Origin: Escherichia phage REP4
Strand: one strand, 5' to 3'
Sequence record: OQ174503.1
DNA length: 64,000 nucleotides
Shown: positions 43,676-50,826 of the stretch, piece by piece
Layout: the number at the start of each line of letters is the position of its first letter
Numbering within the stretch: position 1 is the first letter of the stretch
Program-made: the position numbers and the translations under genes
Notes under the pieces: model-generated
Databases searched by the model: none
Seen by the model: the letters and a program-made list of their open reading frames with translations, nothing else
Told to the model about the DNA's origin: nothing

Positions 43676-44791
43676 ATGGAAAAATTTATGGCAGAGTTTG
43701 GACAAGGATATGTCCAAACGCCATTTTTATCGGAAAGTAATTCAGTAAGATATAAAATAAGCATAGCGGGTTCTTGCCCGCTTTCTACTGCAGGACCATA
43801 CGTTAAATTTCAGGATAATCCTGTTGGAAGTCAAACATTTAGCGCAGGACTTCATTTAAGAGTTTTTGACCCTTCTACAGGAGCATTAGTTGATAGTAAG
43901 TCATATGCTTTTTCTACTTCAAATGATACTACATCAGCGGCTTTTGTTAGTTTCATGAATTCTTTGACGAATAATAGACTTGTTGCTATATTAACTAGTG
44001 GAAAGGTTAATTTTCCTCCTGAAGTGGTGTCTTGGTTAAGAACCGCAGGAACGTCTGCTTTTCCATCTGATTCTATATTGTCAAGATTCGACGTATCATA
44101 TGCTGCTTTTTACACTTCTTCTAAAAGAGCTATTGCATTAGAGCATGTTAAACTAAGTAATAGAAAAAGCACAGATGATTATCAAACTATTTTAGATGTT
44201 GTATTTGACAGTTTAGAAGACGTTGGAGCTACCGGATTTCCAAGAAGAACGTATGAAAGCGTTGATCAATTTATGTCGGCAGTTGGCGGAACTAATAATG
44301 AAATTGCGCGATTGCCAACTTCAGCTGCCATAAGTAAATTATCTGACTATAATTTAATTCCTGGCGATGTTCTTTATCTTAAAGCTCAGTTATATGCTGA
44401 TGCCGATTTACTTGCGCTTGGAACTACAAATATATCTATCCGTTTTTATAATTCATCAAATGGATATATTTCTTCAACACAAGCTGAGTTCACCGGACAA
44501 GCTGGGTCTTGGGAATTAAAGGAAGATTATGTAGTTGTTCCAGAAAACGCTGTGGGATTTACGATATACGCGCAAAGAACTGCACAAGTCGGTCAAGGTG
44601 GCATGAGAAATTTAAGCTTTTCTGAAGTGTCAAGAAATGGAGGTATTTCGAAACCCACTGAATTTGGCGTCAATGGCATTCGTGTTAATTATATCTGTGA
44701 ATCTGCTTCACCTCCGGATATAATGGTACTTCCTACACAAGCATCGTCTAAAACTGGTAAAGTGTTTGGGCAAGAATTTAGAGAAGTATAA
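43676..44791 (+). CDS. 35: gp35 long tail fibre hinge (knee) protein
   Basis: 371 aa; position between genes 34 and 36. Confidence 0.9.
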   Translation: MEKFMAEFGQGYVQTPFLSESNSVRYKISIAGSCPLSTAGPYVKFQDNPVGSQTFSAGLHLRVFDPSTGALVDSKSYAFSTSNDTTSAAFVSFMNSLTNNRLVAILTSGKVNFPPEVVSWLRTAGTSAFPSDSILSRFDVSYAAFYTSSKRAIALEHVKLSNRKSTDDYQTILDVVFDSLEDVGATGFPRRTYESVDQFMSAVGGTNNEIARLPTSAAISKLSDYNLIPGDVLYLKAQLYADADLLALGTTNISIRFYNSSNGYISSTQAEFTGQAGSWELKEDYVVVPENAVGFTIYAQRTAQVGQGGMRNLSFSEVSRNGGISKPTEFGVNGIRVNYICESASPPDIMVLPTQASSKTGKVFGQEFREV

Positions 44792-44822: not shown

Positions 44823-44830
44823 TATAAATA
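44823..44830 (+). promoter_or_regulatory. Late promoter TATAAATA upstream of gene 36
   Basis: Exact TATAAATA 24 nt upstream of gene 36 ATG. Confidence 0.55.
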
Positions 44831-45527: not shown

Positions 45528-48500
45528 ATGGCTACTTTAAAACAAATACAATTTAAAAGAAGCAAAACCGCAGGTGCACGTCCTGCTGCTTCAGTATTAG
45601 CCGAAGGTGAATTGGCTATAAACTTAAAAGATAGAACAATTTTTACTAAAGACGATTCAGGAAATATCATTGACTTAAGCATTTCTGCTGGCGGTAGTAT
45701 CAGTGGAAATATCACTCAAACTGGCGATTATTTACAAAATGGAACATATAATCTTAATGGAAACCAGTTTGTTTATGCAGGAAAATATATTGAATTTTTA
45801 CCTAAAACTGCTGGTAATGGTGCTTGGGCAAATCAACATAAAAATAAAGCTCCTATCTTTACCGATTTGAGTTCAACGACTTCTACTTCAGAATACCATC
45901 CGCTAATTAAACAACGCTATAAAGATGGAACTTTTTCTGTTGGTACGTTAGTAAACGAAGGTAGTTTTAAAATTCAATATATCAATGAATCTGGTGATTC
46001 AAAATATTGGACTTTTAATCGTAACGGTAGTTTTATTGTAGATAATGGCAGTATTGAAGTCCGTGCAGGTAATATTTCTGCATCAGGCAATATTAACTCG
46101 GCAACTGGATTTGTTTCTGCACCGCGCGTCAATACAAAAAATATTAACCTGAGTTCTAAAACCTTTATACCGAATAATGACACGGGTTATGACATTGTTT
46201 CTTTACCTACTTGGATTTATAATCCACCAGCAGATGGTTCTGACCGTGATACAAACGGATTGAACTACATGCGTAAAATGCGGGCTTCAAATACTTCTAG
46301 CATTTTCCATGAAATAGTTGACTGTCGTTCAGGAAAGCCACAAGAAATTTCTTGGTGGACCGGCGTAGGACCTTCGTCTTTCCAGTGGGCATTTGATACC
46401 TCTGGACGTATTACCGCAGGTAAATCTATTTCAGTAGGTCTTCCTGATAGTGGTACAAATGGCCGTTATCCACTTGATTCTGCAATTTCTATTGGTATTG
46501 CGATTGGCGATAACGATACCGGTATTAAATGGGTCCGCGATGGCGTTTATGACCTGATGGCTAACGGTATTTCATCCGCTACCATTTTGAACAACGGTAT
46601 TAATAGTACTAAAAAATTGATGGTTGGTTATAGCCGTGATTCCGGCTCTACTTGGGATTTCCCAAATAACAACCAAGCAATGTTTACTGCGCGTACCGAT
46701 ATTGATGGTAATAATAACGGCGATGGTCAGACTCATATTGGTTATAGCAGCAATTCTAAAATGTATCACTATTTCCGTGGCACGGGTCGTATGGCTGTCG
46801 GAATGGCTGAAGGTTTAATTGTTGAGCCGGGTATTTTAGATATTAAAACTGGGTCCAATAGAGTTGCTATTAGAGCAGATGGTACATTTGACTCAACCCA
46901 ACGTATTTCAATGCGTACTGGATTATTTTTATCAGGTGATGATAATACCAATGCTTTGTCATTTAAAGCGCCTACAGGTGTTGACGGGACAAAAACCATT
47001 AACTGGGATGCAGGCACTCGTAATGGTCAGAATAAAAATACTGTAACCATTAAAGCGTGGGGTAACTCATTTAACTCAACTCCAGGTAATAGAGAAACTG
47101 TATTCGAAGTTTCAGATTCACAAGGTTATTATTTCTACGCTCAACGTACTAATCCTGCGTCAGGTCAAACAGTAGGTCCTATTAATTTTAAATTTAATGG
47201 TACTGTAGAAACTGGACATATTGTTGGGCTCGGAAATATAAGTGCCTCTGGTACAGGTTCTTTTGGTGGCAATGTTACCATGTCTAATGGTTTGTTTGTC
47301 CAAGGTGGTTCTTCTATTACTGGGCAAGTTAAAATCGGCGGAACATCAGATGCATTAAGAATTTGGAATGCTGAATATGGCGCAATTTTCCGTCGTTCTG
47401 AAGATAAGTTTTATATTATTCCAACTCCGCAGAATGCCGGTGAATCAGGTGGTATTTCTAATTTACGTCCGTTCTATATTACATTAAGTAATGGTAAAGT
47501 TTCCATGGATCATGATGTAGATATCGGCGGCGGTAGATTTAAAGTAGAAGTGGCTGGAACTACGGCTGGTCAACGTATTACAGTTAATGCAAGTAGCGAT
47601 GCTATTAGAATAAATGCTCCAACACAAGAGTCTTCTAACTTCATTCAAGGACGTAAGGCTGATGTGCCTAAATGGTATTTGGGTATTGGTGATGGCGGCA
47701 ATGTCGTTCGTATGCACAGCTACACACATTCACATGGTATTGCATTAAATTCTGATTCTGTCGATATTACTAAGCCTCTTAAAGTCGGCAATGCCCAACT
47801 AGGAACTGACGGTAATATTACCAATGGTTCAGGAAACTTTGCCAACTTAAATACCACGTTAAATCGTAAAGTTAATTCTGGATTTATTACTTATGGAGCA
47901 ACCTCTGGATGGTATAAGTTTGCAACTGTAACAATGCCACAATCCACTTCAACAGTCTTCTTTAAAATAGTTGGAGGTTCTGGATTTAATAGCGGATTAT
48001 TCACCCAATGTAATATTGCTGAAATTGTTTTACGTACTGGTAATGAAAGACCTTCTGACTTAAATGCTGTATTATACACAAGAACAACTGGAATGTATAG
48101 CGCAGCATTTAGAAATATTGCAGTTAACAATGTCTCTGGAAATACATATGACATTTATGTTTATGCTGGAACATATTGTAATCAACTAGTTTGTGAATGG
48201 TCATGTACCGAAAATGCTACTGTTAGCGTTATTGGTATTAACTCATCTACCCAATCACCTGTGGATGCTCTTCCAGATACAGCAGTTGATGGGCAAGTTG
48301 CTAATGTTCTTAATAACTTGGTTGATCGCGGTAAAGTTAAGCGTTATGAAGCCGATTCTGAAATAGCTATTAATAGCCCAACCGGTATTCGTATCAGAAG
48401 CAATGGCGATAAAACTGGTTCTGTTGCTACAATGCTACGAAATGATGGCGGCAGTTTTTATATTCTGTTTACAGATAAAAATGCCACCGATGGCGCAGCA

Positions 48501-49316
48501 ACTGTTAATGGTGATTGGAATAGTAAACGTCCTTTCGCAATTAACTTAACAACCGGCGAAGTGATGATGAATAATGGCATAGCTGTTCGCAGCGCTGCTT
48601 TATTCTATAATAGCATAAACGTCAAAGATAATGGTTCTATTAACTTTGATAAATCAGGTGCTAACCCGAGAAATATGAGAATATTTCATGCTGGCGATGC
48701 TTCTCGCGGTAACCGCATTGAAATTGCAGATGAAACTAACTATATTGCTTACTTTGAAAAGACTCCAGGTGGAGCTAACCGCTTTGTAGTAAATAATGCT
48801 ACTGTAGCTGGTGTTAACCAAATGAATTCATTTGGTATTAATATCAATAACGCACTTGGTGGAAATAGTATAGCATTTGGTGATAATGACACTGGAATTA
48901 AACAATCCGGTGACGGACTTCTTGATATTATTACTAACGCCGCACGCCGAATGAGATTCCAGACAGGTGACACCTATTCTGACATGAATATAAACGCTCC
49001 AAACGTTTATATTCGTTCTGATATTCGTTTGAAATCTAATTTCAGACCTATTGAAAATGCTCTTGAAAAGGTTGAACAGCTTGATGGTTTAATCTATGAT
49101 AAAGCTGACTATATAGGTGGTGAAATTGTTCAGACTGAAGCGGGTATTGTGGCTCAAACACTGCAAGATGTTTTACCAGAAGCAGTTCGTGAAGTTGAAG
49201 ATATTAAAGGTAATAAAATACTCACTGTTTCTTCTCAATCCCAGATTGCTCTTCTAGTTGAAGCTGTGAAAACACTTTCTGCTCGTGTAAAAGAACTTGA
49301 ATCTAAACTTATGTAA
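45528..49316 (+). CDS. 37: gp37 long tail fibre distal subunit, T2-type with C-terminal intramolecular-chaperone-like domain
   Basis: 1262 aa, MATLKQIQFKRSKTAGARPAASVLAEGELAINLKDR...; C-terminal RSDIRLK...GIVAQTLQDVLPEAV...ALLVEAVK motif. Confidence 0.95.
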   Translation: MATLKQIQFKRSKTAGARPAASVLAEGELAINLKDRTIFTKDDSGNIIDLSISAGGSISGNITQTGDYLQNGTYNLNGNQFVYAGKYIEFLPKTAGNGAWANQHKNKAPIFTDLSSTTSTSEYHPLIKQRYKDGTFSVGTLVNEGSFKIQYINESGDSKYWTFNRNGSFIVDNGSIEVRAGNISASGNINSATGFVSAPRVNTKNINLSSKTFIPNNDTGYDIVSLPTWIYNPPADGSDRDTNGLNYMRKMRASNTSSIFHEIVDCRSGKPQEISWWTGVGPSSFQWAFDTSGRITAGKSISVGLPDSGTNGRYPLDSAISIGIAIGDNDTGIKWVRDGVYDLMANGISSATILNNGINSTKKLMVGYSRDSGSTWDFPNNNQAMFTARTDIDGNNNGDGQTHIGYSSNSKMYHYFRGTGRMAVGMAEGLIVEPGILDIKTGSNRVAIRADGTFDSTQRISMRTGLFLSGDDNTNALSFKAPTGVDGTKTINWDAGTRNGQNKNTVTIKAWGNSFNSTPGNRETVFEVSDSQGYYFYAQRTNPASGQTVGPINFKFNGTVETGHIVGLGNISASGTGSFGGNVTMSNGLFVQGGSSITGQVKIGGTSDALRIWNAEYGAIFRRSEDKFYIIPTPQNAGESGGISNLRPFYITLSNGKVSMDHDVDIGGGRFKVEVAGTTAGQRITVNASSDAIRINAPTQESSNFIQGRKADVPKWYLGIGDGGNVVRMHSYTHSHGIALNSDSVDITKPLKVGNAQLGTDGNITNGSGNFANLNTTLNRKVNSGFITYGATSGWYKFATVTMPQSTSTVFFKIVGGSGFNSGLFTQCNIAEIVLRTGNERPSDLNAVLYTRTTGMYSAAFRNIAVNNVSGNTYDIYVYAGTYCNQLVCEWSCTENATVSVIGINSSTQSPVDALPDTAVDGQVANVLNNLVDRGKVKRYEADSEIAINSPTGIRIRSNGDKTGSVATMLRNDGGSFYILFTDKNATDGAATVNGDWNSKRPFAINLTTGEVMMNNGIAVRSAALFYNSINVKDNGSINFDKSGANPRNMRIFHAGDASRGNRIEIADETNYIAYFEKTPGGANRFVVNNATVAGVNQMNSFGININNALGGNSIAFGDNDTGIKQSGDGLLDIITNAARRMRFQTGDTYSDMNINAPNVYIRSDIRLKSNFRPIENALEKVEQLDGLIYDKADYIGGEIVQTEAGIVAQTLQDVLPEAVREVEDIKGNKILTVSSQSQIALLVEAVKTLSARVKELESKLM

Positions 49317-49317
49317 A

Positions 49318-49335
49318 AGAGGGCTTCGGCCCTCT
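49318..49335 (+). terminator. UUCG-tetraloop hairpin agagggcTTCGgccctct after gene 37
   Basis: 7-bp stem; weak U-tract, may be an RNA-stability element rather than a terminator. Confidence 0.35.
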
Positions 49336-49346
49336 AAGGATTTTTA

Positions 49347-50138
49347 ATGGCAATTGTAGGTGTTCCTGGCTGGATTGGTGAATCTGCCGTGAATGAAACT
49401 GGACAACGTTGGATGGATGCTGCAATGAAAGCAGTTCGTGTTTCAGTTCCTGGTTGGATGAGCTCAATGGCTGGACAATCTAAAGAAGTATATTACAGCA
49501 TTGGTGCTAGCAATTCTTATAATAAAGATACGCTAATAAATTGGATAAAAGCCCAAGGAAGTACTCCTGTTGTTATTACTATTACAGGAAATATTGTTTC
49601 TCAATCTACTGGTGTTCCATGCTTAGATTTTCCTAGCTCATTAACTAATGCATATGTTACCTTAAATATTAATAGTGGGGTTCATGTATTAGGTCGGGGA
49701 GGAAATGGCGGAAGTAACTCTGCTGGTGGAGCAGGAGGAACTGCAATAAATAACGGAATTGGAACTCGTTTAAGAATAAACAATAATGGTATTATTGGTG
49801 GCGGCGGCGGTGGCGGCGCAGGTGCTAGATACAATCCTTTCCCTCAAATGGATATGAAATTTGGTGGCGGCGGAGGTCGTCCATTTGGCGCAGCTGGCGC
49901 AGCAGGAGGTGGCGCAGCTGCAGCATCTGCTGGTACAATTTCTGCTCCCGGTAAAGGCACTGTTTCTGGGGTTCACCATGGAGGAGATGGTGGAGATTTA
50001 GGAGCTGCTGGCAAATCTTCATATATTCAAGGTGGTACTGGAGGAACTATTCACTCGGGTGGCGCAGCAGGTAAAGCTGTTACTGGTAATGCTCCAACTT
50101 GGACTAAAGTTGGTACAATATATGGTGCAAGAGTATAA
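49347..50138 (+). CDS. 38: gp38 T2-type receptor-recognising adhesin with glycine-rich motifs
   Basis: 263 aa; poly-Gly motifs (GGGGGGGAGA, FGGGGGRPFGAAGAAGGG, GGDGGDLGAAG, GGTGGTIHSGGAAG) separating short variable segments. Confidence 0.85.
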   Translation: MAIVGVPGWIGESAVNETGQRWMDAAMKAVRVSVPGWMSSMAGQSKEVYYSIGASNSYNKDTLINWIKAQGSTPVVITITGNIVSQSTGVPCLDFPSSLTNAYVTLNINSGVHVLGRGGNGGSNSAGGAGGTAINNGIGTRLRINNNGIIGGGGGGGAGARYNPFPQMDMKFGGGGGRPFGAAGAAGGGAAAASAGTISAPGKGTVSGVHHGGDGGDLGAAGKSSYIQGGTGGTIHSGGAAGKAVTGNAPTWTKVGTIYGARV

Positions 50139-50169
50139 TTTTGAATAAATATCCTTAAAAGGAGGGTCT

Positions 50170-50826
50170 ATGGCAGCACCTAGAATATCATTTTCGCCCT
50201 CTGATATTCTGTTGGGTGTTCTAGATCGCTTGTTCAAAGATAACGCTACCGGGAAGGTTCTTGCTTCCCGGGTAGCTGTCGTAATTCTTTTGTTTATAAT
50301 GGCGATTGTTTGGTATAGGGGAGATAGTTTCTTTGAGTACTATAAGCAATCAAAGTATGAAACATACAGTGAAATTATTGAAAAGGAAAGAAATGCACGC
50401 TTTGAATCTGTCGCCCTGGAACAACTCCAGATAGTTCATATATCATCTGAGGCAGACTTTAGTGCGGTGTATTCTTTCCGCCCTAAAAACTTAAACTATT
50501 TTGTTGATATTATAGCATATGAAGGAAGATTACCTTCAACAATAACCGAAAAATCACTTGGAGGATATCCTGTTGATAAAACTATGGATGAATATACAGT
50601 TCATTTAAATGGACGTCATTATTATTCCAACTCAAAATTTGCTTTTTTACCGACTAAAAAGCCTACTCCCGAAATAAATTACATGTACAGTTGTCCATAT
50701 TTTAATTTGGATAATATCTATGCTGGAACAATAACCATGTACTGGTATAGAAATGATCATATAAGTAATGACCGCCTTGAATCAATATGTTCTCAGGCGG
50801 CCAGAATATTAGGAAGGGCTAAATAA
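50170..50826 (+). CDS. t: Holin T
   Basis: 218 aa; single TM near N-terminus and large periplasmic domain; matches T4 gpt. Confidence 0.95.
   Translation: MAAPRISFSPSDILLGVLDRLFKDNATGKVLASRVAVVILLFIMAIVWYRGDSFFEYYKQSKYETYSEIIEKERNARFESVALEQLQIVHISSEADFSAVYSFRPKNLNYFVDIIAYEGRLPSTITEKSLGGYPVDKTMDEYTVHLNGRHYYSNSKFAFLPTKKPTPEINYMYSCPYFNLDNIYAGTITMYWYRNDHISNDRLESICSQAARILGRAK

Follow-up and report, generated by a model that had tools for sequence, protein, structure and literature searches.

The product of gene 38 (gp38) in the window, i.e., the whole 64,000-nucleotide stretch of DNA from Escherichia phage REP4 (sequence record OQ174503.1) that was analyzed here, is best explained as a monomeric adhesin of the T2/T6/S16 type, the terminal receptor-recognizing protein of the long tail fiber; taken jointly with the mechanism and the Tsx receptor proposed below, we hold this explanation to be very probable. 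The protein itself is already known and deposited, and its family, architecture, structure and role are textbook matters: the genetics of the gp38 adhesin family dates from the 1980s onward, its layout of glycine motifs (GRMs) and variable segments (HVSs) from 2011, its crystal structures from 2018 and 2026, and its receptor screens from 2021 to 2026. What the present analysis adds is a corrected count of the motifs and a receptor prediction unlike the one that the label "T2-type" would suggest.

Family, fold and attachment domain of gp38

Gene 38 is an ATG-to-stop open reading frame (ORF) on the + strand with exactly the bounds listed in Table 1, and its translation has the 263 amino acids given by the initial annotation, from which this study set out. 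An identical 263-aa protein is present in GenBank (WBY53100.1, "tail fiber protein [Escherichia phage REP4]"), and the same sequence recurs in three Logan assemblies, where the g37-g38-t neighborhood is kept. Its 90%-identity cluster comprises 81 members, including those from slur07, Geo, Kelasse, Kha5h, KIT06, AV109, AV114, AV115, Bas43 and Brandy.

At the level of sequence profiles, the Pfam family Gp38_N (PF21721) matches aa 1-42 (E = 7.3e-18; 64.7 bits, cut-off 25) and the family GP38 (PF05268) matches aa 47-263 over profile positions 1-218 of 218 (E = 5.5e-69, far outside the range of chance; 232.8 bits, cut-off 25), and PHROG 2056, described as "tail fiber protein; host specificity", is recovered over gp38 residues 1-263 with an E-value of 4.4e-101. 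The best sequence matches in the PDB are the gp38 of S16 (6F45_D, 2.1e-47) and the receptor-binding domain of PP01 gp38 (9V85, 9.5e-31). An AF2 model of gp38, computed from an alignment of 91 sequences, has a mean pLDDT of 93.1 and a pTM of 0.87, with no segment below a pLDDT of 50. When this model was compared with the PDB using Foldseek, gp38 structures were the only significant matches (6F45_D, E 1e-22, TM 0.77/0.82; 9V85_C, TM 0.81), an agreement that amounts to consistency and not to independent proof, since 6F45 is older than the AF2 training set. The S16 protein (6F45) and the PP01 domain (9V85) have the same helical bundle, β-helix and polyglycine-II (PGII) sandwich as the REP4 protein, to which they are 37-41% identical, but their loops differ from it, and both bind OmpC. 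The two Pfam families, the PHROG, the match to 6F45_D and the superposition of the model together bear out the T2-type adhesin architecture that had initially been proposed, and no observation spoke against an adhesin.

Within the attachment domain, the model places helices at residues 10-18, 23-29 and 38-41. W9 and W22 are invariant, W37 is near-invariant (at least 90%), and all three align with tryptophans of S16 gp38, a protein whose monomer is held on the gp37 trimer by three tryptophans (PMC6851490).

Table 1. Features of gene 38, its product and the surrounding sequence (positions are those of the window; gene 38 includes its stop codon)
Feature	Position	Strand	Evidence
T4-type late promoter consensus TATAAATA, just 5' of gene 36	44823..44830	+	Exact match
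Gene 37, distal long-tail-fiber subunit, 1262 aa, trimer capped by gp38	45528..49316	+	Pfam gp37_trimer, Gp34_trimer, Peptidase_S74
gp37 C-terminal intramolecular chaperone, aa 1164-1262	49017..49313	+	Peptidase_S74 at aa 1164-1221, E 8.5e-14
Stem-loop GAGGGC-UUCG-GCCCUC, within the 30-nt g37/g38 gap	49318..49335	+	MFE -13.4 kcal/mol, z = -1.8
Ribosome-binding site AAGGA, 6 nt 5' of the g38 ATG	49336..49340	+	Sequence reading
Gene 38, T2/T6/S16-type receptor-recognizing adhesin, 263 aa	49347..50138	+	ORF, Pfam, PDB 6F45_D, WBY53100.1
N-terminal attachment domain, three-helix bundle, aa 1-46	49347..49484	+	Gp38_N at aa 1-42; 96% identity to T2
Central β-helix, first part, aa 47-115	49485..49691	+	AF2 β-strands; aligns to 6F45_D β-helix; 62% T2, 33% T6
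GRM1, GRGGNGG, aa 116-122	49692..49712	+	G116, R117, G118, G119 invariant in 91 sequences
HVS1, SNSAGGA, aa 123-129	49713..49733	+	Variable block 123-127; aa 122-126 equivalent to PP01 loop-A
Conserved β-helix rungs, GGTAINNGIGTRLRINNNGII, aa 130-150	49734..49796	+	Invariant G130, G131, I134, N136, G139, L142, N146, I150
GRM2, GGGGGGGAG, aa 151-159, longest poly-Gly run	49797..49823	+	Matches S16 PGII helix 3, residues 151-158 (PMC6851490)
HVS2, ARYNPFPQMDMKF, aa 160-172	49824..49862	+	Highest-entropy block; aa 162-171 equivalent to PP01 loop-B; has N163, K171
GRM3, GGGGGRPFGAAG, aa 173-184	49863..49898	+	G173-G177, R178, P179, F180, G181 invariant in 16 references
HVS3, AAGGGAAAASAGTISAPGKGTVSGVHH, aa 185-211	49899..49979	+	Blocks 184-195, 204-212; aa 185-190 equivalent to PP01 loop-C, aa 206-210 to loop-D
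GRM4, GGDGGDLGAAG, aa 212-222	49980..50012	+	G213, G215, G216, G219, G222 invariant (16 references)
HVS4, KSSYIQGGTGGTIHS, aa 223-237	50013..50057	+	Blocks 223-229, 232-237; aa 226-235 equivalent to PP01 loop-E
GRM5, GGAAGKAVTG (aa 238-247), and conserved C-terminal motif NAPTWTKVGTIYGARV (aa 248-263)	50058..50135	+	Reference alignment
Gene t (holin), downstream neighbor of g38	50170..50826	+	Pfam Phage_holin_T, 4.7e-117

Conserved glycine motifs and the segments between them

Glycine accounts for 50 of the 149 residues between positions 115 and 263 of gp38 (34%) and for 11 of the 114 residues that precede them (9.6%); the C-terminal half further contains 15% alanine and is encoded at 50% GC, as against 36% for the window. 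Short ORFs on the opposite strand, e.g., one at 49682..49834 encoding PPPPPPP, simply mirror the GGN codons and are not genes. With a cluster defined as a 9-residue sliding window holding at least five glycines, four dense clusters are seen, at residues 114-124 (GRGGNGG), 146-162 (GGGGGGGAG), 169-189 (GGGGGRPFGAAGAAGGG) and 208-220 (GGDGGDLG), and runs of at least three consecutive glycines number only three in the protein (lengths 7, 5 and 3). The four poly-glycine motifs initially counted in the C-terminal half are therefore a fair reading of these clusters by eye, but in the published anatomy of gp38 (Trojet 2011, PMC3157838) there are five GRMs, which separate four HVSs, and the fifth GRM, GGAAGKAVTG (238-247), is of lower glycine density. 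All five, along with the C-terminal PxW..G.IYG motif, are found in aligned positions in the REP4 protein with entropy peaks between them. The same study described the C-terminal extremity of gp38 as conserved (PMC3157838), and among 16 reference proteins G242, A244, V245, G247, P250, W252, G256, I258, Y259 and G260 are invariant in the region formed by GRM5 and the C-terminal motif. In the crystal structure of S16 gp38, ten short PGII helices and five distal loops were resolved (PMC6851490).

The variation between these motifs was quantified as column entropy in the alignment of 91 sequences, i.e., gp38 and 90 homologs retrieved from a search of 5.8 billion proteins. High-entropy blocks lie at residues 123-127, 160-173, 184-195, 204-212, 223-229 and 232-237, and the glycine columns that flank the variable blocks (G116-G121, G152-G158, G173-G181, G213-G222 and G238-G247) are either invariant or conserved to at least 90%. 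Conserved glycine motifs framing variable segments are hence a real pattern in gp38, and the earlier description of short, variable, non-glycine segments set between glycine motifs holds across the 91 sequences. The boundaries of the GRMs and HVSs in Table 1 were drawn by us from the entropy profile and the segment-by-segment alignment, and the equivalents of the PP01 loops were assigned by alignment, via the AR1/PP01 numbering, to the published loop boundaries (PMC12892980).

Receptor alleles and the prediction of Tsx

In the gp38 family, swaps of gp38, chimeras and point mutants have established that the HVSs set receptor choice (PMC3157838; bioRxiv 10.64898/2026.04.02.716166; PMC12892980). 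For PP01 gp38 in particular, cross-linking and loop mutants tie the loops to receptor choice, with loop-E governing specificity (PMC12892980). The placement of receptor specificity in the segments between the glycine motifs, as first suggested for the REP4 protein, is thus supported by evidence at the level of the family.

When gp38 is compared segment by segment with the gp38 proteins of reference phages of known receptor, the OmpA type being represented by M1, AV119 and AV108, the variable segments prove to be unlike those of T2, partly related to those of T6, and closest to those of the Tsx-dependent phages Bas43, AV114, AV115 and KIT06. The T2 protein (FadL/OmpF) has the same architecture and is 96% identical in the attachment domain, 62% in the β-helix and 50% in HVS1, but its specificity cassette is a different allele, with identities of 8%, 11% and 7% in HVS2, HVS3 and HVS4, respectively. 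On account of these values a T2-like use of receptors (FadL/OmpF) is not expected and was ruled out; the label "T2-type" is accordingly apt for the architecture and the attachment domain, but not for specificity. Comparison of HVS2-4 with the alleles of phages using OmpA (AV119, AV108, M1), OmpF (RB51) and OmpC (AR1) likewise found no resemblance, and these alleles were set aside as candidates.

T6 gp38 belongs to the same family and has as its receptor the one that is probable here, Tsx. It is 55% identical overall to the REP4 protein, with 65% in the attachment domain, 33% in the β-helix, 54% in HVS2, 37% in HVS3 and 20% in HVS4, and the relationship is visible as shared patterns in HVS2 (xYxPFPQMxxxF) and the center of HVS3 (GTISxPGxGxVxG). 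The gp37 tip that goes with it belongs to another type; T6 gp37 resembles REP4 gp37 only in the chaperone part (42%). Given this limited likeness, the REP4 gp38 is a second Tsx-associated allele, distinct from the classic one of T6.

The gp38 proteins of Bas43 (TadeuszReichstein), AV114, AV115 and KIT06 are of equal length to that of REP4 and 96-97% identical to it, with the same layout of GRMs and HVSs and the same HVS allele. For the first three, the identity is 100% in the attachment domain, 97-99% in the β-helix, 85% in HVS2, 96% in HVS3 and 87-93% in HVS4; KIT06, whose gp38 is 96% identical, is also the closest genome-wide neighbor of the region, and AV114 and AV115 belong to Mosigvirus, not Tequatrovirus. 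The need of Bas43 for Tsx is known from knock-out and complementation screens (PMC8594841 supplement) and independently from RB-TnSeq (bioRxiv 10.64898/2026.04.02.716166 supplement, where the pair Bas43-Tsx also has an ipTM of 0.56), AV114 and AV115 are Tsx-dependent when tested on ECOR4 delta-tsx (PMC10844046), and KIT06 does not infect Keio delta-tsx (PMC11274021). Since the HVS allele is common to these four Tsx-requiring phages, the E. coli nucleoside channel Tsx is likely to be the primary receptor of REP4 as well, going by its relatives.

We do not place this prediction any higher, because the REP4 version is a sub-allele that differs from these relatives in the loops, and a few changes in the HVSs can be enough to switch the receptor. 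The sub-allele is shared with the gp38 proteins of RB18 and vB_EcoM-UFV13, each of which differs from that of REP4 by 2 aa, not a meaningful difference in the protein; N163, K171, H211 and D214 are common to the three, and all four Tsx-verified relatives carry H163, I171, Y211, N214 and V235. Five substitutions (N163H, K171I, H211Y, D214N and I235V) consequently separate the REP4 protein from every Tsx-verified relative, with Q228K in addition in Bas43. Four of the five map to recognition loops B, D and E or right next to them: N163 and K171 fall within the loop-B equivalent, H211 adjoins loop-D and the equivalent of loop-E ends at I235, the fifth, D214, being situated in GRM4. One to three HVS substitutions in the gp38 family can switch or widen specificity, as in the literature case of RB68, where Q206L in gp38 switches the receptor from OmpF to OmpW, and in PST, which differs from T6 by few HVS changes and has gained OmpA (PMC3157838). 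A literature search for receptor reports on REP4, RB18 and UFV13 found none.

These observations leave some room for the reading that gp38 is a genuine adhesin of this family that uses a receptor other than Tsx, or one in addition to it, e.g., OmpA or a variant Tsx. Against this, apart from these substitutions the HVS set belongs to the allele of the Tsx relatives (85-96% identity) and is far from the OmpA, OmpF, OmpC and FadL alleles compared above, the substitutions are conservative or polar-for-polar, and the four independent phages with this allele, from two genera, all need Tsx. On balance we judge such a receptor to be unlikely, and we put slightly lower still the chance that the sub-allele of RB18, UFV13 and REP4 recognizes something besides the Tsx of K-12, be it a divergent Tsx, an added OmpA or a new porin; if it did, it would constitute a natural few-residue receptor switch inside the second Tsx-type HVS allele.

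With Tsx retained as the preferred receptor, the following course of events can be proposed. The gp37 trimer would fold with its own C-terminal chaperone, the Peptidase_S74 domain found in the sequence, and, to judge from the family, is then predicted to be auto-cleaved after S1163, between …NVYIRS and DIRLKSN…, exposing the gp38-binding tip. The three-helix bundle of gp38 (aa 1-46), by analogy with the mode of attachment in S16 (6F45), is predicted to insert W9, W22 and W37 into the three equivalent pockets at the tip of the gp37 trimer. Residues 47-150 would form a β-helix, from which two excursions would build the PGII sandwich of the GRMs, as in the model (pLDDT 93), which matches 6F45 and 9V85, and the HVSs between the glycine motifs would serve as the distal loops in contact with the receptor in the outer membrane. 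Binding to Tsx would come first, and irreversible binding would follow via the short tail fibers to the LPS inner core, the predicted terminal receptor, as in Bas43.

The gp37 partner, gene order and other readings of gene 38

The gene order in this region is g36-g37-g38-t, and T2, T6, RB18 and T4 likewise have g37-g38-t, the arrangement of Tequatrovirus and Mosigvirus. Over its last 165 aa gp37 shares 80% identity with its T2 counterpart, its C-terminus matches the S16 gp37 fragment 6F45_A (1.5e-9), being aligned to S16 …NVSSDRRIKKD…, and its tip is T2-like and without the T4 needle domain. This T2-like C-terminus accords with the T2-like attachment domain at the N-terminus of gp38, and together with the C-terminal Peptidase_S74 domain it agrees with the proposal of the initial annotation that gp38 binds the tip of gp37. 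Gene 38 of RB18 has 98.9% DNA identity to that of REP4. The genome around it is mosaic, gp37 of RB18 being only 70% identical overall to its REP4 counterpart.

As for expression, the match to the late promoter consensus upstream of gene 36 is the sole exact + strand occurrence of TATAAATA from 39763 to the end of the window, and an exact-match search found no TATAAATA directly upstream of g38. This promoter probably drives g36-g37-g38 as one late unit, an assignment made from its position, because the count of TATAAATA across the whole window shows no excess above chance. For the hairpin between g37 and g38, whose z-score is only -1.8, we claim no function.

The place of gene 38 between g37 and t is also that of gene 38 in T4, and some records label homologs of the REP4 protein "distal long tail fiber assembly catalyst", so that it could conceivably be read as a T4-type gp38, i.e., a gp37 assembly chaperone absent from the virion, with specificity residing in the gp37 tip. 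T4 gp38 is not a virion component. However, BLASTP against T4 gp38 (183 aa, NC_000866) gives a best E-value of 13, and the T4 protein falls in PHROG 105 as opposed to PHROG 2056, so that the two share no family and have only a gene name and a position in common. Further, as noted above, the C-terminal part of gp37 consists of a self-chaperoning domain and a T2-like tip in place of the T4 needle domain, and "assembly catalyst" is a legacy label, the T4 RefSeq note itself calling the gp38 of the T2 subfamily unrelated, and the adhesin. A T4-type chaperone is thus rejected at the sequence level and is exceedingly improbable, in keeping with the distinction from the 183-aa T4 protein drawn at the outset.

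No more credible is the notion that the glycine-rich region lacks a specific fold and is an artifact of low complexity or repeats, for although its extreme composition (34% glycine, 15% alanine and the elevated GC content) and the spurious poly-proline ORFs on the opposite strand might invite it, it is refuted by glycine positions that are invariant across 91 homologs while the segments between them vary, by the ordered PGII lattice in two crystal structures, and by a model that is confident throughout.

For the family, the identification of gp38 as an adhesin implies that the labels "assembly catalyst" and "tail assembly protein" attached to gene 38 homologs are legacy errors. The finding has little significance past correct annotation; the prediction that REP4 probably uses Tsx and the LPS core, and not the receptors of T2, is useful for the design of phage cocktails.

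Opposite-strand reading frames, spacer and gene 35

Positions of the features discussed here in the window
Feature	Position	Product or context
Gene 35, hinge connector	43676-44791	gp35
Gene 37, distal long-tail-fibre subunit	45528-49316	gp37
GAGGGC-UUCG-GCCCUC tetraloop hairpin	49318-49335	30-nt g37/g38 spacer; directly adjoins the g38 Shine-Dalgarno
Minus-strand ORFs antisense to g38	49682-50237	
GRM2, glycine-rich motif of gp38	49797-49823	poly-Gly run

The strand opposite g38 carries several ORFs of 50-72 aa, one of them encoding PPPPPPP. These were rejected as genes, being mirror images of the Gly/Ala codons of g38, and their annotation is to be avoided. The elevated GC of the C-terminal half of g38 (50%, as against 36% for the window) is purely a consequence of its Gly/Ala content. 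The hairpin in the g37/g38 spacer has an MFE of -13.4 kcal/mol with a z of only -1.8, and could be an RNA-stability or translational-coupling element. Further upstream, aa 58-126 of gp35 match the Pfam ILEI domain (interleukin-like EMT inducer, FAM3-type; E 3.5e-8, 34.3 bits, cut-off 27), an unexpected label on a phage tail-fibre hinge protein.

Labels and poly-glycine length among gp38 homologues

Many of the deposited gp38 homologues (H1, H3, H5-H8, H13) are wrongly labelled as 'hypothetical protein', 'tail assembly protein' or 'distal long tail fiber assembly catalyst', names that were carried over from T4 gp38, to which they are unrelated. Comparison of the homologues also reveals a length polymorphism in the poly-Gly run of GRM2: in the homologue P0003, GGGGAG replaces GGGGGGGAG of the window, so that three residues are missing. 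At the DNA level the run is encoded by a GGT/GGC repeat (ggtggcggcggcggtggcggc), and a tandem repeat is annotated at this site in one database record (TB34), a pattern consistent with slippage.

Mosaicism of gp37 and the hypervariable cassette of gp38

Inspection of gp37 against its RB18 counterpart shows it to be strongly mosaic: there is virtually no difference over residues ~740-1120, but identity drops to only ~55-60%, with numerous indels, in the 740 aa at the N-terminus. The ~35 aa preceding the predicted cleavage site read IITNAARRMRFQTGDTYSDMNIN in the window as opposed to IYANSVQVFRFQNGDLYSYKNIN in T2/RB18, and thus differ as well, despite a gp38 attachment domain that is almost the same.

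The hypervariable segment (HVS) cassette of the window gp38 (ARYNPFPQMDMKF … KSSYI[QK]GGTGGTVHS) recurs in the homologues P0002, P0003, P0125 (phage Brandy) and L006/L007 (AV114/AV115). It is found joined to a Krischvirus-type N-terminal domain (MAISSGWVGSSAVSETGQRWMSAAMQ…), and the same cassette is also present in Mosigvirus phages and in Tequatrovirus. This distribution of a single cassette indicates that the specificity cassette passes from genus to genus without being tied to a particular attachment domain.
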